This document shows positions 9,409 to 19,582 of a stretch of DNA of 32,000 nt, piece by piece. Each line of letters begins with the position of its first letter. The first letter of the stretch is position 1. This DNA comes from Nostoc sp. PCC 7120 = FACHB-418 (GTDB taxonomy: Bacteria > Cyanobacteriota > Cyanobacteriia > Cyanobacteriales > Nostocaceae): contig NC_003272.1 in the NCBI RefSeq assembly GCF_000009705.1, positions 1,650,001 to 1,682,000 of the forward strand, in the 5' to 3' direction. Below the pieces are notes generated by a model that searched no databases, was not told the DNA's origin, and was given only the letters and a program-made list of their open reading frames with translations. A program made the position numbers and the translations under genes.

Positions 9409-12400
9409 ATGTACCCCACTAATACGAGAAACACCATTGGATTAGCCCTTTTGGTAATTGGTTCGGTGATTTTTGCCGGAAACCACGTCCTCGCGGAAAT
9501 AAAAACTGATACCACATTGGGAAGTGAAGCATCCATATTAAACCAAGGCGTTAGTGTTAAAGGGGCGATCGGGGATATTATCGATGGTGGTGCAGTCCGG
9601 GGAACAAAGCTCTTCCATAGCTTTCAAGAATTTAGTATTGGTGAAGGGCAGAGGGTTTACTTCTCCAACCCTGCCGGAATCAAAAACATCCTCACACGCG
9701 TCACGGGGAACAATCGTTCTGATATTTTGGGAACCTTGGGGGTTTTAGGTAATGCCAATTTGTTTCTGATTAATCCCAACGGCATTGTATTTGGACAAAA
9801 TGCCCGATTAGATATAGCAGGTTCCTTTGTAGCCAGTACAGTTGATAGTTTAACGTTGGGTAATGGCTTTGTGTACAGCGCGACCAAACCTGAAATACCG
9901 CCTTTATTAAATATTAATCTCCAACCAGGTTTACAGTTAGGAACAGAAATAGGAACTATTACTAATAGAGGAAATTTGGCAGTAGGGCAGAATCTCATCT
10001 TATCTGCCAACAACCTAGACTTGCAGGGAAGTTTGCAAGCAGGACAAGATTTGACATTAAACGCCAGAAATCAAATTCAGATGCGTGATACCATCGCCAG
10101 TCCGTTGATAGCGGCGGCGAAGGAAAAATTACTGATTCAAGGTAATCAATCGGTAAATATTTTTGCCCTCAATCATCCCGATAGTGGCTTATTTTCGGGT
10201 GGAGATATGATTCTTCGTTCCCTGAGCGACATTGATGGCGATGCCCATTATTGGAGTAGGGGAAATTTTCGCATTGAGAAGTTAGATGGTAATTTGGGGG
10301 GGTTATTTAGTCCCGATGATCCGATAATTAGGTCTAATGGTGATGTTTCCCTGGCGAGCTTTACTGGAGCTTCCCTACACATTCTCGCTGGCGGTAAGGT
10401 AGAAATTCCTGGTAATGTGATAATTTTTCGTCCAGATAACCTCAGCAGTGCGATCGCCGAAACTGTCACCCTATCCGATGGTAACACCGTTAATATTAGT
10501 GGTAGTACTGATTCTACCTTAGACATCCGGGCGGGAATTAATTGGCAGAACCTACCAGGAAATAGCAGCTTGGGACAGCTTTCTTCTCTACCCAGCTTCA
10601 ACAATGCCACAAGTGCCGACATTAATCTTGGCAATATCAGGGTTTTTGATTTTGTTGGAGGTCAGGGCGGGAAGATCTTCTTAACTAATCAATATCAAGC
10701 TAATCCTACTCTAAGCGGAAATATTCGAGTCAACATCATTGATGCCAGAGATTCATTCCAAGGGACTTCCCTATTTATGAACTCGCGCGGTAATATCGCC
10801 GTCAACATCGCCGACACATCTTCCTTTAGGCAAGGTAATGGTGGCGACATCACTATGATCGCTCAGGGTAATATCAGCCCTCAATTGCTACTTTCCAGGG
10901 GCTGGTTGGGTGGTAACATCACACTCAAGAGTAATGCCAATATTTCGGTAGCAACCGGTTTTATTAGCAGTCAAAGCAGGGCTAATACTGAGACAGGTTC
11001 CCCTCTGACTGGAGGTGATATTGAGATTACAGCCGATTCCCTCTTTTTAACTAATGGGGCAAACATCACTGTCATCAATGAAAACATCTCTAATGGTGGC
11101 AATTTAAAAATTACTGCCAACAATATTTTTCTAGAAGGTGTTCCCAGTAATGGATCTGCTGGGGGCATAACTAGCCAGGTTTGGCCAGGAAGTATCGGTA
11201 AAGGGGGCGATATCCAGATTACCACAGGCAAACTCTCAGCAGAAAAAGGCTCTCAGGTAATCGCTATTACTTTTGGTGCAGGGAAAGCAGGAAACGTCAC
11301 CATCCACGCGAGCGATCGCATTTTCTTGAGTGGTATAAGTAATACAGGTATTCCCGGTGGTGTAGCCAGTCGCTCTCAAGACTCAGGTGCTGGAGGAAAT
11401 GTGAATATTACCACGCGATCGCTGACGATTGAGAATTCTGCTCGTGTCAGTACCGCTACTACGGGCAGAGGAACAAGCGGTAATGTGATGATTAATGCCA
11501 GTGATGCAATTGTTCTTGATGGTTATGATACAGCAATTATTAGTCAAGCCTTTCCTGATACCACAGCAGGTGGTAATATTAATGTAACTACAGGTAAATT
11601 GTCTCTATTCAATGGTGCTGCTATCAGTAGCGGCACTAGAGGTATAGGCAATGCAGGTAACATTCAAATCATTGCAGATATGTTTATAGCCGATGGGGTT
11701 AGCCCCATCACTGGCTTTGCTAGTGGAATTACTGCGGCAACGGATGACAACGCTCAAGGCAATGGTGGCAACATTGACATTATTAGCCGGATTATTGCTT
11801 TAACTAATGGTGGGCAAATTACAACTAGCACCGATGCCAGAGGTAACGCTGGTAACATCAAAATTACAACTAATGCGATAAACATTGATGGCTCTAGCCC
11901 ACTGCGAGAAAATTTTCCTAGTGGTATTCTCAGCCTAGTCAGAGCTAATGCTCAAGGTACAGGCGGTAATATTGACATCAATACGGGTCAAATGACATTA
12001 ACTAACGGTGGTTTTTTAGATGCCAGTACTTTTGGACAAGGAAATGCAGGGGATATAAAAATTATTGCCAATGATGCAATGATATTGAACTCAGGAAATA
12101 ACAGTAACGTATCCGGTGATATTAGTAGTCAGGTTTTATCAGGAGCCGTAGGTGATGGGGGTGATATTGAGATCTTTGCTCATAAACTGTTGCTGAGTAA
12201 TGGCTTTCAAATTAAAGCTCAAACATTTGGACAGGGAAATGCAGGTAATATCAAAATAAACACCATTGATTCAGTAGTGCTGAATGGTAGTAGTCCTCGG
12301 ACAAACTCTACAGGTATATTTACTTCTGTTGGCAATGGGGGATTTGGTACTGGTGGTAATATTGATATCCAAACAGGCAAACTAACCCTTGATAATCGAT

Positions 12401-13251
12401 CTATTATCTCTGCGGAAACAGTAAGCAATACTGGTGGTGATATTCGCCTGCAACTCAATGACAGACTGTTACTCAGGCGCAACAGTAGAATTTCCACGAC
12501 TGCGGGAACTGCCCAGGCTGGTGGTGATGGCGGTAACATTATCATTAACACCCCATTTTTGCTGACTGCCCCTCTAGAAAATAACGACATCACCGCCAAC
12601 GCCTTTAGTGGTAGTGGCGGGAAAATAGATATTACAACTCAAGGTATATTAGGCTTTACACCCCGTACTCGTGCAGACTTAGAGGCATCACTAGGAACTA
12701 AAGACCCCAGCCAATTAAATCCGCGATCGCTCCCCACAAGCGATATCACAGCCATTTCCCAAGCTAACGCCTCCTTGGATGGACAGGTAACAATTGACAC
12801 CCCTGATGTAGACCCTGGTAGCGGACTTGTGGCATTACCCACCAATGTAGTGGATGCGTCCCGACTCATTGCCCAAACCTGTCGCAGTGGAGGGGAAACA
12901 ACCGCCAGCCAACAAAGTGAATTTGTCATCACCGGACGAGGAGGTTTACCGCCTAAGCCTAGCGACCCCCTAAGTAGTGATGCCATCTGGCAAGACTTAC
13001 AGCCCTACGCCTTACCCGATGAAAAAGCTGGGGAGCAGGAAGAGAAGTCGCAAGGAGGGTTTCCCTCCGGGCGAACTTCCCTACGGGATGCTACGCGAAT
13101 GGGAGCAAGGGAGCAAGGGGAAAAATCACCCACACCCATAGTTGAAGCCCAAGGCTGGGTAACTAGTACGGATGGTAAGATTACCCTGGTAGCTCAAGCA
13201 CCCACAACAACACCTCATAATTCTTCATTCACGCCAGTTAGTTGTTCTTAA
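9409..13251 (+). CDS. Filamentous-hemagglutinin-type (TPS/haemagg_act N-terminal domain) beta-helical exoprotein
   Basis: Signal peptide MYPTNTRNTIGLALLVIGSVIFAGNHVLA|E. TPS domain: GGAVRGTKLFHSFQEFSIGEGQRVYFSNPAGIKNILTRVTGNNRSDILGTLGVLGNANLFLINPNGIVFGQNARLDIAGSFVAST. This is followed by many degenerate repeats of the type GxGNAGNIxIxxxxxxxLxG / GGNIDIxTGxLxLxNG. Confidence 0.9.
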   Translation: MYPTNTRNTIGLALLVIGSVIFAGNHVLAEIKTDTTLGSEASILNQGVSVKGAIGDIIDGGAVRGTKLFHSFQEFSIGEGQRVYFSNPAGIKNILTRVTGNNRSDILGTLGVLGNANLFLINPNGIVFGQNARLDIAGSFVASTVDSLTLGNGFVYSATKPEIPPLLNINLQPGLQLGTEIGTITNRGNLAVGQNLILSANNLDLQGSLQAGQDLTLNARNQIQMRDTIASPLIAAAKEKLLIQGNQSVNIFALNHPDSGLFSGGDMILRSLSDIDGDAHYWSRGNFRIEKLDGNLGGLFSPDDPIIRSNGDVSLASFTGASLHILAGGKVEIPGNVIIFRPDNLSSAIAETVTLSDGNTVNISGSTDSTLDIRAGINWQNLPGNSSLGQLSSLPSFNNATSADINLGNIRVFDFVGGQGGKIFLTNQYQANPTLSGNIRVNIIDARDSFQGTSLFMNSRGNIAVNIADTSSFRQGNGGDITMIAQGNISPQLLLSRGWLGGNITLKSNANISVATGFISSQSRANTETGSPLTGGDIEITADSLFLTNGANITVINENISNGGNLKITANNIFLEGVPSNGSAGGITSQVWPGSIGKGGDIQITTGKLSAEKGSQVIAITFGAGKAGNVTIHASDRIFLSGISNTGIPGGVASRSQDSGAGGNVNITTRSLTIENSARVSTATTGRGTSGNVMINASDAIVLDGYDTAIISQAFPDTTAGGNINVTTGKLSLFNGAAISSGTRGIGNAGNIQIIADMFIADGVSPITGFASGITAATDDNAQGNGGNIDIISRIIALTNGGQITTSTDARGNAGNIKITTNAINIDGSSPLRENFPSGILSLVRANAQGTGGNIDINTGQMTLTNGGFLDASTFGQGNAGDIKIIANDAMILNSGNNSNVSGDISSQVLSGAVGDGGDIEIFAHKLLLSNGFQIKAQTFGQGNAGNIKINTIDSVVLNGSSPRTNSTGIFTSVGNGGFGTGGNIDIQTGKLTLDNRSIISAETVSNTGGDIRLQLNDRLLLRRNSRISTTAGTAQAGGDGGNIIINTPFLLTAPLENNDITANAFSGSGGKIDITTQGILGFTPRTRADLEASLGTKDPSQLNPRSLPTSDITAISQANASLDGQVTIDTPDVDPGSGLVALPTNVVDASRLIAQTCRSGGETTASQQSEFVITGRGGLPPKPSDPLSSDAIWQDLQPYALPDEKAGEQEEKSQGGFPSGRTSLRDATRMGAREQGEKSPTPIVEAQGWVTSTDGKITLVAQAPTTTPHNSSFTPVSCS
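13029..13120. repeat. Small dispersed repeat embedded in-frame in the 3' part of the TPS-exoprotein gene
   Basis: GGGAGCAGGAAGAG...GGAGGGTTTCCCTCC (hairpin, 13054-13068)...CCCTACGGGATGCTACGCGAA (13079-13099)...GGGAGCAAGGGAGCAAGGGG. It translates as the low-complexity stretch GEQEEKSQGGFPSGRTSLRDATRMGAREQGEK. A related motif in inverse orientation is at 28392-28416. Confidence 0.45.
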
Positions 13252-13254
13252 GTA

Positions 13255-13290
13255 GGGGTTTAGGGGTTTAGGGGTGTGGGGGTGTAGGGG
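13255..13290 (+). repeat. G-tract array (five G4-5 runs) starting 4 nt after the stop codon; potential G-quadruplex
   Basis: GGGGTTTAGGGGTTTAGGGGTGTGGGGGTGTAGGGG, with G runs at 13255-58, 13263-66, 13271-74, 13278-82 and 13287-90 and loops of 3-4 nt. Confidence 0.6.
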
Positions 13291-13303
13291 AAAGACTTAA
13301 TTT

Positions 13304-13354
13304 ATTTTGAATTTTGAATTTTGAATTTTGAATTGTCAACTTTGAATTGTCAAC
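13304..13354 (+). repeat. Tandem repeats: heptamer ATTTTGA x4, then 14-mer TTTGAATTGTCAAC x2 (STRR-like)
   Basis: Four perfect ATTTTGA units span 13304-13331. TTTGAATTGTCAAC is at 13327-13340 and 13341-13354, ending 4 nt before the CHAT gene ATG (13359). Confidence 0.8.
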
Positions 13355-13358
13355 ATTT

Positions 13359-15893
13359 ATGCGGCGAGTTTTTACTTTTCTGCTTTGTGCCTTACTAGGT
13401 ATGGGCTTTACTCTTATACCCCAATGGCATCAAGTCCAAGCTTCAATTTCTCAATCATCCCCACTCCCCACTCCCCAGTTAATTCAACAAGGCAGAGAAC
13501 TATACCAAGCAGAACAATATACTCAAGCTGTGGATGTTTGGCGAGCTGCACTTAAAGCAGAAACCAATATATTGTCCCAGGCAATGTTGTTAAATTACCT
13601 TTCCCTGGCTTATCAAGAATTGGGACAGTGGCAACAGGCAAATGAGACAATTAACTCTAGCCTCAACCTCATACAACAATCAAAACAGACAACTCCACAA
13701 GCCAAGCTTATCCTCGCCCAAGCTCTTAATACTCAAGGAAGTTGGCAGCTAGCGCAAGGTAAAGCCGAACAAGCCCTCAACACTTGGCAACAGGCAACAG
13801 CCATATATACTACAGCAGGAAATGTACAGGGTAAAATTGGCAGCTTAATTAATCAAGCCCAAGCTCAACAAGCTTTAGGGCTTTACCTCCAAGCTCGTAA
13901 AACTCTAGCTGGAGTGGAACAAGGACTACAACAACAGCCAAATCAAAAATTGCAAATTACAGGGCTGCGTAGTCTGGGAAATATCTTCAGATTGGTAGGC
14001 GCTCTAGACGATTCTCGGAGGGTTTTGCAGCAAAGTTTGCAGATAATTAATCAAGGCAATGTATCAAAATCAGAACTAAGTCCAACCTTAATCAGCTTGG
14101 GTAATACAGCTGATGCCCAAGGCGACAAAGAAGGGGCATTAACATATTATGAACAAGCGGCGGCGAATGCGACTGTTACCTTAACGCAGATTCAAGCACA
14201 AATCAATCAACTGAACATATTAATAACAACTGGACAAGCCAAGCAAGCTGAAAATCTAGGGAAACAAATTCAGCCCAAGTTGACTAATTTATCTCCCAGC
14301 CGTCAGACGATTTACGCCAGCATTAACTTGGCAAAAAGTCTGATGAAATTGACTGGTGAGGGAGTAGACGAATCTGCTAAACTACTAGCCACAGCCATTA
14401 AACAAGCCCAAAACTTGAGCGATCGCCAAGCTGAATCTTATGCTTTAGGCTATCTCGCTGGACTCTATGAACAAACTCAACAGTGGTCAAACGCTCAAGA
14501 ATTAACTCAACAGGCTTTGCAACTAGCACAAGCTATTAATGCCCCAGAAATAGCCTATCAGTGGCAATGGCAATTAGGACGTATCTTAAAAGCACAAGGC
14601 GCAATCAAGCCAGCAACATCCGCCTATGAGGTAGCCTTCACCACCTTGAAATCTCTGCGGAGTGATTTGGTAGCAATTAACAGTGATATTCAATTTTCTT
14701 TTCGTGAAGCCGTCGAGCCTGTATATCGTGAATATGTAGAATTACTATTGAATCCAGGCAAAAGCTTAGAACCCAGTCAGCAACAACTCAAACAAGCTAG
14801 GCAAGTCATCGAATCACTACAACTAGCCGAACTTGACAACTTTTTTCGCTCTGCTTGTCTCCAAGGTCAAATAGTTCCAATTGAGCAGATTCAACAGTCA
14901 GAAGCCGCAATCATTTATCCGATTATTCTGCCAGATAGACTGGAAGTAATTGTCAGTTTACCCCAGCAGACCCTACGCCACTACGCCACCAAAATAAGTC
15001 AACACGAAGTAGAAGAAGTTCTAGACCAACTCAGACAAAATTTAGAAAAGCCTTTCACCTCACCAGAGGGTAAGAATTTATCTACGAAAGTTTATGACTG
15101 GTTGATTCGACCTCTAGAAACACAACTGTCTCAAACTCAAGTGCAAACATTAGTGTTCGTCTTAGATGGTTCCCTACGGAACGTGCCAATGGCGGCTTTA
15201 TTTGACGGCAAACAGTATTTAATTGAAAAATACAGTGTGGCACTCACACCTGGGTTAGAGTTATTAGGCCCCCGGCCTTTGCGCCAAGGTCAACTCAAAA
15301 CCTTAGTTGCAGGACTGACAGAAGCACGCCACGGATTTAATTCCCTCCCCAATGTGGGTGATGAATTAAAAGCAATTGAGTCAGAAGTGCCTAGTCAAGT
15401 CCTCTTGAATCAAACCTTTACCAGTGCAGCCTTACGAAAGCAGATAGACTCTCTACCGTTTTCCATCGTGCATTTAGCAACACATGGTCAATTTAGTTCC
15501 AATGTTGATGAAACTTTTGTCCTGGCTTGGGATAAACCAGTCAAAGTTAATGAATTAAAAGACTTACTGTATAACAGAAACCAAAATAGACCTGAGCCGA
15601 TAGAATTACTTGTTCTCAGTGCTTGTGAAACCGCCGACGGAGACAAAAGAGCCGCTTTAGGATTAGCTGGGGTAGCCATTCAAGCAGGCGCGCGCAGTAC
15701 TCTAGCCTCCCTTTGGAGTTTAGACGATGAATCTGGCGCTCGTCTCATTGGTCAATTTTATAAAGAGTTAGCAACTAAACAAGTGACAAAGGCAGAAGCA
15801 CTGCGCCAAGCCCAAATCTCCCTATTAAAAGACCCCGATTACAGGCATCCTATACATTGGGCATCCTATGTATTATTGGGAAATTGGCTTTAA
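13359..15893 (+). CDS. Secreted TPR-repeat CHAT-domain (caspase-like) protease
   Basis: The track start 13347 is TTG. The ATG at 13359 gives the signal peptide MRRVFTFLLCALLGMGFTLIPQWHQVQA|S. The N-terminal ~450 aa are TPR-like (repeated Q/A/L-rich helical units, e.g. AMLLNYLSLAYQELGQWQQA). The C-terminal CHAT domain has the His/Cys dyad context IVHLATHGQF and LLVLSACETADGD, and ends HPIHWASYVLLGNWL. Confidence 0.9.
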   Translation: MRRVFTFLLCALLGMGFTLIPQWHQVQASISQSSPLPTPQLIQQGRELYQAEQYTQAVDVWRAALKAETNILSQAMLLNYLSLAYQELGQWQQANETINSSLNLIQQSKQTTPQAKLILAQALNTQGSWQLAQGKAEQALNTWQQATAIYTTAGNVQGKIGSLINQAQAQQALGLYLQARKTLAGVEQGLQQQPNQKLQITGLRSLGNIFRLVGALDDSRRVLQQSLQIINQGNVSKSELSPTLISLGNTADAQGDKEGALTYYEQAAANATVTLTQIQAQINQLNILITTGQAKQAENLGKQIQPKLTNLSPSRQTIYASINLAKSLMKLTGEGVDESAKLLATAIKQAQNLSDRQAESYALGYLAGLYEQTQQWSNAQELTQQALQLAQAINAPEIAYQWQWQLGRILKAQGAIKPATSAYEVAFTTLKSLRSDLVAINSDIQFSFREAVEPVYREYVELLLNPGKSLEPSQQQLKQARQVIESLQLAELDNFFRSACLQGQIVPIEQIQQSEAAIIYPIILPDRLEVIVSLPQQTLRHYATKISQHEVEEVLDQLRQNLEKPFTSPEGKNLSTKVYDWLIRPLETQLSQTQVQTLVFVLDGSLRNVPMAALFDGKQYLIEKYSVALTPGLELLGPRPLRQGQLKTLVAGLTEARHGFNSLPNVGDELKAIESEVPSQVLLNQTFTSAALRKQIDSLPFSIVHLATHGQFSSNVDETFVLAWDKPVKVNELKDLLYNRNQNRPEPIELLVLSACETADGDKRAALGLAGVAIQAGARSTLASLWSLDDESGARLIGQFYKELATKQVTKAEALRQAQISLLKDPDYRHPIHWASYVLLGNWL

Positions 15894-15997
15894 GTGCGAT
15901 CGCTATTAGACAATTAAAAAAATTTATCAGGCAGTGACTACAATGACGCTAAATTCTTATGACGAAGCAGCTCTTAGAGTCAACTTGATAGCCCCTG

Positions 15998-16271
15998 ATG
16001 AAATTAGCCGATCTCCTCAAAGACTCAAATTATAAGCATTTCTCAACCAGATTGAGCCAATTTGTTAATTCCAATTTTACCAAAACTTCAACAGCAAAAG
16101 TTTGTTGAAAAGATAAATTCATCATTTTCATTAAAACTAAAATCCAAACAACTGCTAGAAATTGCTAAAACAGGAGTAGAACAGGCGATAGAAACTGATG
16201 AAGCAACAGCAACCCATTGGATAAACCAGCAACTTGAAGCATTAGGCATCACCCTAACTGCTACCATTTAA
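15998..16271 (+). pseudogene. hsdS: 3'-terminal relic of a type I restriction-modification specificity subunit gene (hsdS), frameshifted
   Basis: ORF 16062..16271 reads LLIPILPKLQQQKFVEKINSSFSLKLKSKQLLEIAKTGVEQAIETDEATATHWINQQLEALGI. This resembles the conserved IP(L/I)PPLxEQxxIV...coiled-coil...AKxAVExAIE C-terminus of HsdS. An adjacent frame upstream (MKLADLLKDSNYKHFSTRLSQF) would join it through a 1-nt frameshift near 16058. There is no target-recognition domain and no hsdM or hsdR nearby. Tail copy A is at 16155-16247. Confidence 0.5.
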
Positions 16272-16288
16272 ACAATCTGGGAATAATC

Positions 16289-16531
16289 ATGAAAGCACTT
16301 AAAGTTATGGCAACGATTAACGACCAGGGACAACTAACTTTAGATCATCCGCTTTTAACTGATAAAAATAGCCGAGTAGAAGTCATTGTGCTAATCCCTG
16401 AAGAAGAAGAAATTCTGGATGATCAATCTCAAGCAGAAGTCTTAGCAGATTTCCGGCAAGCTTGGCAAGAAGCCATGACTGGGCAGACTATCCCGGTGGC
16501 TCAACTTTGGGAAGGTCTTGAAGATGCTTGA
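16289..16531 (+). CDS. Type II antitoxin-like protein (80 aa)
   Basis: MKALKVMATINDQGQLTLDHPLLTDKNSRVEVIVLIPEEEE...LADFRQAWQEAMTGQTIPVAQLWEGLEDA. It is small and acidic. Its stop overlaps the ATG of the downstream RelE/ParE-like reading frame (GATGCTTGA), the typical TA operon layout. Confidence 0.7.
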   Translation: MKALKVMATINDQGQLTLDHPLLTDKNSRVEVIVLIPEEEEILDDQSQAEVLADFRQAWQEAMTGQTIPVAQLWEGLEDA

Positions 16532-16898
16532 TCAGCCTTTGATTTAAGTTGAAGCTTCGCCAACGTTTAAACGAAATATACGCACTCTTGCTAAGAAATA
16601 TCGCAGTATTCGGAATGACATACAACCTGTTATCGAACAACTTGAGCAAGGAGAATTGCCAGGAGATCAAATACCTGGGATTGGTTATACAGTCTTCAAG
16701 TTGAGAGTCCGAAATAGTGACACTCAAAAAGGTAAAAGCGGTGGCTATCGTTTAATTTACTACGTCAAAACAGCAACAGGAATCATTTTGCTGACCGTTT
16801 ACACAAAATCTGAACAAGTCGATATTGCCGCAGATGACATTCAGAGCATCATTGCAGACTATGAGCAACGGACGCTTACCGAGCAAGACAATAGCTAG
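16524..16898 (+). pseudogene. RelE/ParE-superfamily toxin gene interrupted by an in-frame TAA at codon 8
   Basis: ATG 16524 reads MLDQPLI, then TAA (16545-16547). The same frame continues VEASPTFKRNIRTLAKKYRSIRNDIQPVIEQLEQGELPGDQIPGIGYTVFKLRVRNSDTQKGKSGGYRLIYYVKTATGIILLTVYTKSEQVDI... The track ORF 16656..16898 (TTG) is only the C-terminal two thirds. Confidence 0.7.
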
Positions 16899-16987
16899 AA
16901 ACGGCTAAAACAGCAGTAGAACGAGCGATAGAGATGGATAAAGCGATCGCCATAACTTGGATAAACCAGCAACTAAAAGCCTTGGAG
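16895..16987 (+). repeat. hsdS-tail repeat, copy B
   Basis: An ungapped alignment with copy A (16155-16245) gives about 70/91 identical positions by hand count. It still reads LETAKTAVERAIEMDKAIAITWINQQLKALEVNRS* without stops. It starts on the toxin stop codon, and its own stop overlaps the Uma2 ATG (ATGA). Confidence 0.65.
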
Positions 16988-16998
16988 GTCAACCGATC

Positions 16999-17580
16999 AT
17001 GATTGCTCAACCTGAGACTAAGCGTTACACCATTGATGAGTATTTAGAACTGGAAATCGCTTCAGAAATACGCAACGAATATTGTGATGGAGAAATTATT
17101 CCTATGACTGGTGGGACACCCAACCACAACGATATTGCTGGAAATTTGTATATTTTGCTGAAATCTGCCCTAAAAAGCAAAAACTACCGGATTTTCTATG
17201 TCGATCAGCGACTCTGGATTCCCGATGCAAATCTCTATACTTACCCTGATGTAATGGTTTTGCCCAAACCCTTAGAACTTCAAACCGGATGCAAAGATAC
17301 TGTGCTAAACCCTTGCTTTATTGCTGAAGTCTTGTCTAAGTCCACCCAAAACTATGACCGTGGTGAGAAATTTGTTGCCTATCGTCAAATTCCTATCTTC
17401 CAAGAATATCTGCTGATTGATCAATACCGGATACACGTTGAGCATCATATTAAAACAGCCCCTAATCAGTGGCTATTTTCAGAATACGACGACCCCACTG
17501 TCACCCTTTCTTTAAGCACCTTTGAGTTGCAAATTCAAATTGCCGAACTTTACGAAAATATCGATTTTTCCAACGTTTGA
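16999..17580 (+). CDS. Uma2-family (DUF820, PD-(D/E)xK-like) endonuclease
   Basis: MIAQPETKRYTIDEYLELEIASEIRNEYCDGEIIPMTGGTPNHNDIAGNLY...YVDQRLWIP...YTYPDVMVL...NPCFIAEVLSKST...YDRGEKFVAYRQIPIFQEYLLIDQ. This is the classic Uma2 pattern, abundant in cyanobacteria. The track start 16957 is a TTG inside repeat copy B; the ATG at 16999 is preferred. Confidence 0.9.
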   Translation: MIAQPETKRYTIDEYLELEIASEIRNEYCDGEIIPMTGGTPNHNDIAGNLYILLKSALKSKNYRIFYVDQRLWIPDANLYTYPDVMVLPKPLELQTGCKDTVLNPCFIAEVLSKSTQNYDRGEKFVAYRQIPIFQEYLLIDQYRIHVEHHIKTAPNQWLFSEYDDPTVTLSLSTFELQIQIAELYENIDFSNV

Positions 17581-17582
17581 GT

Positions 17583-17652
17583 GAAATTGCTAAAACAGGA
17601 GATAGAAACTGATGAAGCAACAGCCACAACTTGGATAAAATAGCCACTTGAC
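17583..17652 (+). repeat. hsdS-tail repeat, copy C (degenerate)
   Basis: GAAATTGCTAAAACAGGAG[11-nt deletion]ATAGAAACTGATGAAGCAACAGCCACAACTTGGATAAAATAGCCACTTGA. It is close to copy A apart from the deletion and a few substitutions, and the frame is destroyed. It begins 3 nt after the Uma2 stop. Confidence 0.65.
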
Positions 17653-17833
17653 TATAGGTGCTACTGAACCAGAAAATTTTTTCTCTTTTATTTTTCCAAA
17701 CACTGCATATCACCCAAAACCTCAACGTGTAACTCAGCAAGGAGTTCAAAAGCTAACGCCGAACTCCCTTACACACTGTGATTCCCTGTCTTGGGTTATC
17801 AGTTGAATTTGCAAAATTACAGGAGAAATAACA

Positions 17834-19582
17834 ATGCCTACATATACTGGTGATAATAACAAAAATATTTTCACAGCACCTAATGACGGTCTAGCCTGGA
17901 CAATCTCCGGCATGGGAGGAGATGACATCCTAACTGGTGGAAGTCAAAATGACACGATTGAAGGTGGCGAAGGTAAAGATACCATCAATGGTGGCGCTGG
18001 TTTTGATATCCTCAAAGGCGGTGATGGTGATGACACCTTGATTGATACTGAGGGTAATATCGATGGCGGTGCAGGTACTGATACTCTCCGGGCAGACTAC
18101 AGCAAGTATGACAATGGTGCTGGTGTTCATGTCGGTTATTTAGGACAAGCTCAGATTTTCAGTCGCCAAACTGGTACTGGCATACTTGGTTACAGCAATA
18201 TTGAAAAGTTTGAGATTACCGGGACAAAATACGCAGATATTCTTCAAGGCGGCGTTGGCAATGACGTTCTCAAAGGTGGAGCCGGCAATGATGAACTGAG
18301 TGGTGGTGCTGGTAATGACACCCTTGATGGTGGCACTGGTTTTGATATCCTCAAAGGTGGTGATGGTGATGATACCTTGATTGATACTGAGGGTAATATC
18401 GATGGCGGTGCAGGTACTGATACTCTCCGGGCAGACTACAGCAGGTATGACAATGGTGCTGGTGTTCACGTCGGTTATTTAGGACAAGCTCAAATTTTCA
18501 GTCGCTTGACTGGTACTGGCATACTTGGTTACAGCAATATTGAAAAGTTTGAGATTACTGGGACAAATTACGCAGATATCCTCCAAGGCGGTAGTGGCAA
18601 TGACATCCTCAAAGGTGGAGCCGGCAATGATGAACTGAGTGGTAAAGGTGGTAACGATACTCTTGATGGTGGCTTTGGCTATGACACCGTTGTTTATGAC
18701 GGTAATTATGCAGATTATGGTATCTCTTTCCTGAGCAATGGTGATTTGCAAGTCATTGACAAGAACCTCACCAATGGAAATGACGGTACTGACACCATCA
18801 GGGGTGTAGAAGTCATCAACTTTAGACAAGGCGGAAGTTATGGAGTGGTCACAGGTACTACAGGTAATGATGTATTGACCGCATCAAATATGTGGTCATT
18901 CGTCTTCGGTGGTGGCGGTAACGACATTATTACTGGTGGGACTGGCAACGATACCTTGGATGGTAGTACTGGCAATGATACGTTGATTGGTGGCGCTGGC
19001 AATGATACGTTGATTGGTGGTGCTGGTGTTGATACTGCCGTTTATGCGGGAAATTATGCAGATTATGGTATCTCTTTCCTGAGCAATGGTGATTTGCAAG
19101 TCATTGACAAGAACCTCACCAATGGAAATGACGGTACTGACATCCTCAAGGGTGTAGAAGTCATCAACTTTACACAAGGCGGAAGTTATGGAGTGGTCAC
19201 AGGTACTACTGGTAATAATGTATTGACCGCATCAAATATGTGGTCATTTGTCTTCGGTGGTAATGGTAACGACACTATTACTGGCGGCACTGGCAATGAT
19301 ACTTTAGTCGGAGGGCTTGGTGCTGATACCCTCACAGGTGGACTTGGGGCTGATAAATTTGTCTTTAACTCTCTTTCTGAAGGAATTGATGTGATCAAAG
19401 ACTTTTCTTGGCAACAAGGAGATAAGATTCAAATTCTCGGCTCTAGTTTTGGTGCAACTTCCACTAGTCAGTTCAGCTTTGACCAGAATACAGGTGGTTT
19501 ATTCTTTAACGCCCAGCAATTTGCCACTCTTGAGAACAAACCTGCTGGTTTCTTGACAAATGCTGACATCCAAATTGTTTAG
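17834..19582 (+). CDS. RTX-type (hemolysin-type) calcium-binding repeat protein; probable type I secretion substrate
   Basis: ATG preceded by AGGAG (17821-17825). Many GGxGxDxL nonapeptide repeats (GGAGNDELSGGAGNDTLDGG). No N-terminal signal peptide. The C-terminal non-repeat tail is DKFVFNSLSEGIDVIKDFSWQQGDKIQIL...GGLFFNAQQFATLEN. Confidence 0.9.
   Translation: MPTYTGDNNKNIFTAPNDGLAWTISGMGGDDILTGGSQNDTIEGGEGKDTINGGAGFDILKGGDGDDTLIDTEGNIDGGAGTDTLRADYSKYDNGAGVHVGYLGQAQIFSRQTGTGILGYSNIEKFEITGTKYADILQGGVGNDVLKGGAGNDELSGGAGNDTLDGGTGFDILKGGDGDDTLIDTEGNIDGGAGTDTLRADYSRYDNGAGVHVGYLGQAQIFSRLTGTGILGYSNIEKFEITGTNYADILQGGSGNDILKGGAGNDELSGKGGNDTLDGGFGYDTVVYDGNYADYGISFLSNGDLQVIDKNLTNGNDGTDTIRGVEVINFRQGGSYGVVTGTTGNDVLTASNMWSFVFGGGGNDIITGGTGNDTLDGSTGNDTLIGGAGNDTLIGGAGVDTAVYAGNYADYGISFLSNGDLQVIDKNLTNGNDGTDILKGVEVINFTQGGSYGVVTGTTGNNVLTASNMWSFVFGGNGNDTITGGTGNDTLVGGLGADTLTGGLGADKFVFNSLSEGIDVIKDFSWQQGDKIQILGSSFGATSTSQFSFDQNTGGLFFNAQQFATLENKPAGFLTNADIQIV
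17990..18667 (+). repeat. Intragenic tandem duplication, 2 x 339 bp (113 aa)
   Basis: GGAGFDILKGGDGDDTLIDTEGNIDGGAGTDTLRADYSKYDNGAGVHVGYLGQAQIFSRQTGTGILGYSNIEKFEITGT... is repeated starting at 18329. I count 8 of 113 amino-acid differences; the nucleotide copies are near-identical over long runs. Confidence 0.9.
18683..19378 (+). repeat. Intragenic tandem duplication, 2 x 348 bp (116 aa)
   Basis: DTVVYDGNYADYGISFLSNGDLQVIDKNLTNGNDGTDTIRGVEVINFRQGGSYGVVTGTTGNDVLTASNMWSFVFGG... is repeated from 19031. The core (18704-18905 versus 19052-19253) is almost identical at the nucleotide level. Confidence 0.9.

Follow-up and report, generated by a model that had tools for sequence, protein, structure and literature searches.

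In the 32,000-nucleotide stretch of Nostoc sp. PCC 7120 DNA analyzed here (NC_003272.1, 1,650,001 to 1,682,000; hereafter the window, whose first letter is position 1), a toxin-antitoxin (TA) pair and a Uma2-family gene lie one after the other between three copies of the same short coding 3' end, which we call the tail. We read this arrangement as the decayed remnant of a modular locus widespread in cyanobacteria, whose cassettes would be exchanged by RecA-type homologous recombination between the conserved cores of the tails, and we put the probability of this account as a whole at about 0.6. The main interest lies in the general system, of which the window is a decayed example.

A repeat search, a sliding comparison and tblastn agree on three tail copies at the positions given in an earlier, model-made annotation of the stretch (the first-pass annotation). 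Tail A (16148-16254) and tail B (16888-16994) are 75% identical without gaps (80 of 107 positions). When the 107-nt tail A was slid along both strands of the window, tail C matched at 62 of 107 positions (at 17562), against a mean of 27.3, a standard deviation of 4.7 and a maximum of 48 of 107 elsewhere. The repeat search returned a 61-nt family with copies at 16177, 16917 and 17591, the latter two 74% and 85% identical to A, and the consensus tail peptide matched all three copies (E = 1.4e-17 for A, 6.5e-11 for B and 3e-4 for C). All are in direct orientation. A MAFFT alignment of the three shows the gap left in tail C by an 11-nt deletion, which the first-pass annotation had also described. 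A diversity-generating retroelement was rejected as the source of the repeats, as the mismatches between tails A and B are not limited to adenines.

Parent gene of the tail

The tail is the last ~36 codons, coding for the conserved C-terminal helix, of a gene for a single-chain restriction-modification enzyme of ~1190 aa, here called RMS, with the domains of a nuclease, an N6-adenine methylase and an HsdS-like module with two recognition domains. The 69-aa open reading frame (ORF) ending in tail A (16062-16271), a short fragment, has no Pfam match and only a weak NCBIfam match to a specificity subunit (MADS5, E = 9e-4). Its 124 database relatives are all cyanobacterial and 39-123 aa long, and one source labels many of them "type I restriction enzyme M protein". 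The last ~36 residues of these relatives (SKQLLEIAKTGVERAIETDEATATTWINQQLEALG) are nearly invariant, and the parts upstream are divergent.

Full-length forms were found in a comparison set of 80 loci from 80 other species (81 loci with the window), the first tail closing an open frame that extends 1124-1200 aa upstream of it in 19 loci. In Pfam, the protein encoded at L010:632-4207 matches HSDR_N_2 (residues 55-162), N6_Mtase (304-604) and two Methylase_S stretches reaching residue 1156, and there is an Eco57I-type methylase match as well. PADLOC assigns its first 625 residues to MTase_I (1120 bits) and the remainder to Specificity_I (E = 3.8e-43). A PDB sequence search gave four matches, including the HsdS chains 5ybb_D and 3okg_A and S.BsaXI, and places the tail on the conserved helix behind a recognition domain. 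Across cyanobacterial orders the nuclease-methylase part of RMS retains 85-95% amino-acid identity, and the two recognition domains are variable.

The similarity to HsdS C-termini noted in the first-pass annotation is therefore borne out, both by the Methylase_S stretches of a full-length homologue and by the position of the tail on the conserved helix. The type I hsdS parent that it had assumed gives way to a single-chain enzyme. Instead of the separate hsdR, hsdM and hsdS genes of a classical type I system, the three kinds of domain stand in one ~1190-aa frame in the 19 loci, and no HsdR-like helicase was found among the genes recurring downstream of the arrays or in the examined ORFs of the window. 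The domain order of the L010 protein is that of the single-chain type IIB/IIG layout, with nuclease, N6-methylase and specificity in one polypeptide. Type IIB/IIG enzymes of the AloI/CjeI type are single chains with an HsdS-like C-terminal module, and BsaXI has its S subunit as a separate protein. RMS resembles them in its domain order as read from sequence, with a nuclease, a gamma-type N6-methylase and two recognition domains in one ~1200-aa chain, and in its match to S.BsaXI. We know of no type IIB/IIG enzyme with a downstream cassette array.

A disrupted RMS relative is also present in L086, from the Gastranaerophilales, a non-photosynthetic sister group of cyanobacteria (61% identity in the nuclease-methylase part). 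Its tail is recognizable and no recognized cassette follows it.

Cassette arrays and proposed exchange between tails

The first-pass annotation had proposed that the conserved tail is a hotspot collecting small defense-type cassettes, and that its downstream genes should vary in other genomes. This pattern was found: in 56 of the 80 loci a cassette of one of about ten recurring types directly follows the first tail, and tblastn with the consensus tail detected 2-6 tail copies in 27-31 of the loci (about a third), typically 450-750 nt apart. All 129 tails across the 81 loci are direct, with no inverted copies. The cassette types with Pfam confirmation are RelB-like plus ParE, DUF2283, a nucleotidyltransferase (NTP_transf_2; MNT) plus HepT, HicB plus HicA, PIN, DUF559, Uma2 and GIY-YIG, and RelN/RelE recurs as well. 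DUF2283 is paired with an 86-aa protein, PIN occurs in several modules, and Uma2 is represented by two clades.

Cassette order varies between genomes (L039, L084, L043, L072, L011 and L019). After the first tail, L039 carries RelN, RelB/ParE, Uma2_b, DUF2283 and MNT; L084 carries RelB/ParE, RelN/RelE, Uma2_b and MNT/HepT; L043 carries Uma2_a, DUF2283 and RelB/ParE; and L072 carries five cassettes. The two-cassette array of the window recurs in L068 behind an RMS remnant with different deletion end points, and the Anabaena locus L019 has a CHAT homologue and an RMS remnant as in the window, but with the array Uma2_b, Uma2_a and MNT-HepT. The distance from tail to cassette is fixed for each type: Uma2 and MNT start 9 nt past the tail, with an ATGA overlap, whereas RelN and the RelB-like antitoxin start 37-40 nt past it.

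When the tails are sorted by their neighbors, they fall into three parts. Nucleotides 1 to ~17 track the cassette on the left and overlap its last codons and stop, and the part from nt ~90 on, which holds the tail's own stop, a spacer and a ribosome-binding region, tracks the cassette on the right. In a permutation-scaled scan of the alignment columns, linkage to the upstream cassette type has z = 5-7 up to nt 17 and about 0 from nt 18, and linkage to the downstream type has z = 5-17 from nt ~90 onward. Between them lies a 72-nt core that is common to all copies and linked to neither neighboring cassette. At the left junction the PIN cassette is an exception, with about 45 nt more of the tail retained.

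Two pairs of genomes (L080/L043 and L084/L039) differ by exactly one DUF2283 cassette, and in both pairs the shorter array has, at the corresponding place, a chimeric tail, made up of parts of the two tails on either side of that cassette in the longer one. The left part of L080 tail 2 is that of L043 tail 2 (48 informative sites to 0) and its right part that of L043 tail 3 (56 to 0), with the switch at ~nt 45-54. L084 tail 4 is a chimera of L039 tails 4 and 5 with the switch at ~nt 60-80. Such tails fit the footprint expected if cassettes are gained or lost by exchange inside the core at no fixed point, and the differing switch points within the 72-nt homology fit homologous exchange.

The core of tail 1 has an identity of 0.89 to the consensus, against 0.79 in tail 2 and 0.76 in the tails after it (Wilcoxon p = 4e-4), and many downstream tails carry in-frame stops. 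Because tail 1 is nearer the consensus and stops are frequent in the later tails, we conclude that the protein sequence is maintained in the first tail only and that the later copies are relics. A gradient of decay with distance, as a pointer to the place of insertion, was rejected, since only tail 1 differs and there is no significant trend after it. Tails of L061 (4088-4219) and L072 (1365-1496), and the proteins P0097, P0104 and P0115, contain an in-frame 24-nt insertion (..GVERAI-LLQRGxxN-ETDE..) with a small internal hairpin, at the very spot of the 11-nt deletion in tail C of the window; the genomes are unrelated, and the insertion looks like a very small dispersed repeat element.

From these patterns we propose a locus in which small, co-oriented and tightly packed cassettes, mostly type II TA pairs together with single nuclease-like genes, lie downstream of RMS, each followed by a further tail copy. 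The cassettes would be gained, lost and reshuffled through RecA-type recombination between the 72-nt cores. The partners could be tails of one genome, recombining by loop-out or unequal exchange, or a resident tail and one on DNA acquired from another cyanobacterium with this conserved gene. Swaps of the second recognition domain may accompany cassette exchange. The first tail would be kept intact because it is part of the enzyme, and the downstream copies would be untranslated and decaying. We regard the homologous route as the most economical, since no site-specific machinery is seen in the sequence screened, the switch points vary and all tails share 72 nt of homology.

The cassettes are probably co-transcribed from the RMS promoter. 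This is suggested by tight spacing, as cassette genes begin 9-40 nt past a tail, by the frequent ATGA stop/start overlap, and by the lack of terminator-like sites, none being found between 15800 and 17900 of the window; promoter-like sites are not enriched there. The cassettes may have an addiction or defense role.

In a rough classification of the 81 loci, RMS is intact in 19, full length but disrupted in 12, internally deleted with the 5' end kept in 12, present as a 3' fragment only in 27 and cut by a contig end in 11. Varied internal deletions spare the upstream region and the first 13-150 codons in L008, L019, L025, L039, L066, L068, L084 and the window. The retained 5' ends may reflect the need of the downstream TA cassettes for a promoter. 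The end points of these 5'-sparing deletions differ between several loci, the window and L068 among them, which suggests that the cassettes may persist after the loss of the enzyme because they depend on its promoter.

A search of plasmids for annotated arrays gave four weak matches, of which pAQ6 of Picosynechococcus PCC 7002 was the useful one (L088; NC_010480.1, 101758-105897). In this model strain, which is transformable, an intact enzyme (WP_012308631.1), annotated as "N-6 DNA methylase", is followed by RelN/RelE. The next gene after RelN/RelE is a very large one for a "strawberry notch" helicase.

A scan anchored on Uma2 placed all four relatives of at least 85% identity in tail arrays, and a second Uma2 clade too. 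At 65-75% identity there were 29 relatives with enough flank, and none was in such an array. The tail as a general vehicle of Uma2 proliferation was rejected on this result. Particular gene lineages have turned into cassettes, and the tail is not a general Uma2 context.

The decayed array of Nostoc sp. PCC 7120

All features of the window array are on the forward strand. Upstream of RMS is a conserved region, 15896-15997, recognized by its similarity to other RMS upstreams and presumed to hold the promoter and the 5' untranslated region; positions 15896-16037 are 87-94% identical over 142 nt to the RMS upstream and start in L080, L021, L070, L025, L039, L084 and L019. This block opens exactly at a HIP1 octamer GCGATCGC (15896-15903), 3 nt past the stop codon of the preceding CHAT gene, which may mark the left edge of a transferable unit. 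The first 13 RMS codons (MKLADLLKDSNYK, 15998-16036) match the N-terminus MNLADILKDSNYK of the full-length proteins and run up to a deletion junction. They are followed by a remnant of the end of the second recognition domain (..SISQPD*ANLLIPILPKLQQQKFVEKINSSFSLKLK, 16037-16142), identified by alignment to intact 3' ends, which is out of frame with the start codon and has an in-frame TGA at 16053-16055.

Positions 16035-16251 align with intact 3' ends in L011 (2914-3119, 94%) and L010 (3974-4190, 83%), and the junction at 16035-16037 lies in the imperfect microhomology TTAYAAG/CTATAGT. Since the window matches both the start and the 3' end of RMS, joined at this point, the gene has undergone a clean internal deletion of ~3.3 kb that left ~100 nt of upstream sequence, the ATG (15998), 13 codons and the last ~70 codons. 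What the first-pass annotation had described as a frameshifted hsdS stub ahead of tail A is therefore better seen as the upstream region and 13 codons of RMS joined to its last ~70.

Tail A (16143-16271 with its flanks; repeat search, MAFFT and tblastn) is the original coding region of the C-terminal helix together with the RMS stop. Its core, at ~16161-16232, is 92% identical to the consensus, and its 3' end (ALGITLTATI*) is the variant always seen ahead of RelN cassettes. Cassette 1 follows, with a RelN-family antitoxin gene (16289-16531, 80 aa; NCBIfam NF050107, E = 3.6e-33), which stands 37-39 nt past a tail in many other loci too, and a RelE/ParE-family toxin pseudogene (16524-16898; Pfam PF06296, E = 4.9e-7, and PF05016, E = 2.6e-4). 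The toxin ATG (16524) lies inside the end of the antitoxin gene, so that the two form an adjacent, overlapping RelN/RelE pair with the layout of a type II TA system. A CAA to TAA change at codon 8 (16545-16547) breaks the toxin frame; the intact homologue in L011 encodes Q at this position. The antitoxin is intact. Gene callers give the toxin only as an 80-aa C-terminal fragment starting from TTG at 16656.

Tail B (16883-17002 with its flanks; repeat search and tblastn) is a degenerate copy between the cassettes. It begins on the TAG of the RelE gene (16896-16898), and the stop of its frame overlaps the Uma2 ATG in an ATGA at 16999-17002. The stretch is open, as the first-pass annotation had stated, but has no start codon. 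The core is 83% identical to the consensus, and the 3' end (ALEVNRS*, ATGA) is the variant always seen ahead of Uma2 or MNT cassettes. Cassette 2 is an intact gene of the Uma2 family of PD-(D/E)XK nuclease-like proteins (16999-17580, 193 aa; Pfam PF05685, E = 2.5e-34), whose residues 13-180 cover model positions 2-168 of 172, a full-length family match. It also matches the PADLOC candidate PDC-S03 (E = 1.5e-22). In all ten loci compared, the window included, the Uma2 ATG is 9 nt past the last codon of the 36-residue tail match. Three nucleotides after the Uma2 TGA begins tail C (17583-17652; repeat search, MAFFT and tblastn), a terminal relic with an in-frame stop and the 11-nt deletion, in which 64% of the core is kept. 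These family matches and junction coordinates agree with the first-pass annotation, which had identified the passengers as a TA pair and a Uma2 gene and had placed tail B on the toxin stop, the ATGA overlap behind it and tail C 3 nt past Uma2.

Tails A and B share no exact match longer than 18 nt, and A and C none longer than 24 nt. The window array is probably no longer exchange-competent. With the enzyme deleted over 3.3 kb, a nonsense mutation in RelE and degenerate tails B and C, the array of RelN/RelE followed by Uma2 is a largely frozen fossil. The array is also present on seven metagenome contigs from the window's own or closely related populations, and no gain or loss of a cassette was seen among them. 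One has an extra 25-nt deletion in RelE, and another, at 95.5% identity, has gained 5 nt in RelE and lost 49 nt in Uma2. The window lineage is losing the locus piecemeal. In two of the seven contigs (L003 and L004) the CHAT gene is split into fragments and RelE and Uma2 have extra indels, which fits a genome undergoing widespread pseudogenization.

The array is flanked by genes for a CHAT-TPR protein and an RTX repeat protein. The latter (17834-19582) has two long internal duplications, in which blocks of ~110 aa are nearly exact repeats. Within 9409-15893, a 1280-aa protein with a two-partner-secretion (TPS) domain stands directly upstream of the CHAT-TPR protein.

Alternative explanations and relation to known systems

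Discrete, co-oriented and promoterless-looking cassettes, each bracketed by the same short sequence, would also be expected if the core were an attachment site, attC- or Xer/dif-like, for a dedicated recombinase encoded elsewhere that moves discrete units. The left edge of the core is sharp, upstream linkage falling from z 5 at nt 9-17 to 0.4 at nt 18-26, and the 3' junctions of the cassettes crowd a narrow zone of ~17 nt. We nevertheless consider this explanation unlikely. No recombinase was found in the ten largest other ORFs of the window or among the recurrent gene clusters in the 4 kb behind the 80 arrays, the tails contain no hairpin, inverted repeats or dyad symmetry, and the switch points of the chimeric tails are unequal (~nt 45-54 against ~nt 60-80). 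Typical core sites of site-specific systems are shorter than 72 nt, a length that is sufficient for RecA-type exchange. DNA folding of either strand of tail A, tail B and the L010 tail gave z from -0.52 to +0.58 against shuffles, and there was no Rfam match at E ≤ 1 in 15000-18500 of the window; structured RNA and attC-like DNA were rejected on these grounds. The integron-like character suggested in the first-pass annotation thus holds for the layout, with no integrase or attC-type hairpin found, and the mechanism is one that we infer. Less probable still is that the downstream tails are kept for a function of their own, in intercistronic RNA processing, stability or translational coupling or as small peptides, the pattern being a by-product of selection rather than recombination. 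Such a function would suit the 3' part of the tail, in which the stop, the spacer and the ribosome-binding region ahead of the next cassette lie and which co-varies with that cassette, the conserved ATGA overlap ahead of Uma2 and MNT cassettes, and downstream cores that are ~79% identical to the consensus across orders. However, downstream tails gather in-frame stops, deletions and truncations, usually have no start codon and show neither a structure signal nor an Rfam match, the terminal tail (tail C in the window) stands ahead of no cassette, and a functional tail leaves the chimeric tails unexplained.

The clear decay of the window locus, with its internal deletion, RelE nonsense codon and degenerate tails and with further small deletions in related populations, could suggest a purely local event, either one local duplication or the collapse of several paralogous specificity genes with their passengers. 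The collapse of several hsdS genes had been one proposal of the first-pass annotation. It is contradicted by the recurrence of the same cassette-tail junctions in many genera: the same cassettes, junction distances and junction sequences stand behind the tail in dozens of species of several orders, L068 has the same two-cassette array behind an RMS remnant with other deletion end points, and tails A and B, at 75% identity, are not a recent local duplication. We regard a local origin as very improbable. We give equally little credence to nuclease-driven homing, in which Uma2, DUF559 and GIY-YIG would cut cassette-free tails and repair would spread the cassettes, with the TA pairs hitch-hiking. 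Several single-gene cassettes do have nuclease folds, and only particular Uma2 clades occur in tail arrays, but most cassettes are TA pairs with no DNA nuclease, homing splits its target site and does not duplicate 72 nt of it, and Uma2 is a putative nuclease.

Several observations weigh against homologous exchange between tail cores. In the pAQ6 array no second tail follows RelN/RelE, so cassettes can sit there with no bracket; this layout of RMS, RelN/RelE and a single tail may be a simpler starting state. A recombinase may be encoded elsewhere in the genome, as the screen spanned ~4 kb on each side of the tail and, where the gene is intact, ~0.6 kb of sequence ahead of it. Each of the two chimeric tails is seen between different species rather than within a population. 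Homologous recombination alone does not explain how each cassette type first acquired its 3' tail, or why nearly all cassette junctions cluster in the first ~17 nt of the tail. At synonymous sites, some RMS segments are conserved better than the tail: they reach 0.77-0.80 identical codons, whereas the first half of the tail, somewhat raised over a typical 0.5-0.6, has 0.70. Extra synonymous conservation was rejected as a distinctive sign of selection at the DNA level.

Among known systems, the proposed exchange between tail cores is closest in logic to the orphan toxin-immunity arrays of cdiA, rhs and mafB, in which a piece of the main gene is repeated before each module and homologous recombination probably reshuffles the modules with no need for a dedicated recombinase, and to domain exchange in specificity genes. 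As in the orphan arrays, a conserved piece of the main gene is repeated at each downstream module. There the C-terminal toxin domain of the main protein is swapped, whereas RMS contributes its last ~36 codons as the repeat and the cassettes start past the stop codon, so that the enzyme is unchanged and separate downstream genes change. Type I specificity genes form phase-variable hsdS shufflons and also move recognition domains by recombination. The substrates are the conserved helices on either side of these variable domains, and the tail is one such helix. Unlike in shufflons, which have inverted partial hsdS copies and usually an adjacent recombinase, 129 of 129 tails are direct, and TA or nuclease genes rather than recognition domains lie between them.

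Integrons carry small, co-oriented and mostly promoterless cassettes read from one upstream promoter, with TA cassettes common in large chromosomal arrays. The tail arrays share with them the small co-oriented cassettes and a repeated site at each boundary, but no IntI was found within the screen described above, the tail repeats the end of the upstream gene's coding sequence instead of being an imperfect palindrome that folds, and the exchange points vary within its 72-nt homology. Islands in the 3' ends of tRNA and tmRNA genes bring a replacement 3' end that restores the target, leave the duplicated end at their far side and accrete in tandem. The intact target gene and the succession of gene, island, repeat, island and repeat are similar here; those islands are large and have their own integrase, whereas the cassette units are 0.45-1 kb and have none. 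The pdif modules of Acinetobacter plasmids use 28-bp XerC/XerD sites in alternating orientation with no adjacent recombinase gene. They too are small modules, TA pairs among them, between short sites with no recombinase gene alongside, but the tail has no dyad symmetry and all its copies are direct.

The first-pass annotation knew of no description of tail-bracketed arrays. Our full-text search, which covered mainly literature outside the subscription journals, likewise found no description of tail-bracketed cassettes behind a restriction gene, and a review of restriction-modification biology from 2025 makes no mention of such arrays (PMC12707154). The direct repeats around the TA module of Microcystis MaOC1 were set aside as a precedent: they are unrelated intergenic 152-bp repeats with 16-bp inverted repeats (PMC7935541).

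As a tentative proposal, to which we give slightly less than even odds, the last ~100 nt of RMS, a gene that would be spreading horizontally, would act as a portable homology arm in an integrase-free cassette platform of cyanobacteria, by which promoterless TA and nuclease modules are collected, exchanged between genera and co-expressed, the cassettes locking in the locus or its promoter past the decay of the enzyme. It predicts that the restriction enzyme and its cassettes form one transcription unit. Tail copies also offer a reason for the many short "restriction enzyme" fragments annotated in cyanobacterial genomes, such as the 124 relatives of 39-123 aa. If the proposal is true, it would add a third route to cassette arrays beside integrons and the orphan toxin arrays of contact-dependent inhibition, the conserved coding end of a defense gene would double as an exchange site, and there would be a concrete route by which TA modules and the abundant, unexplained Uma2 genes pass between cyanobacteria.

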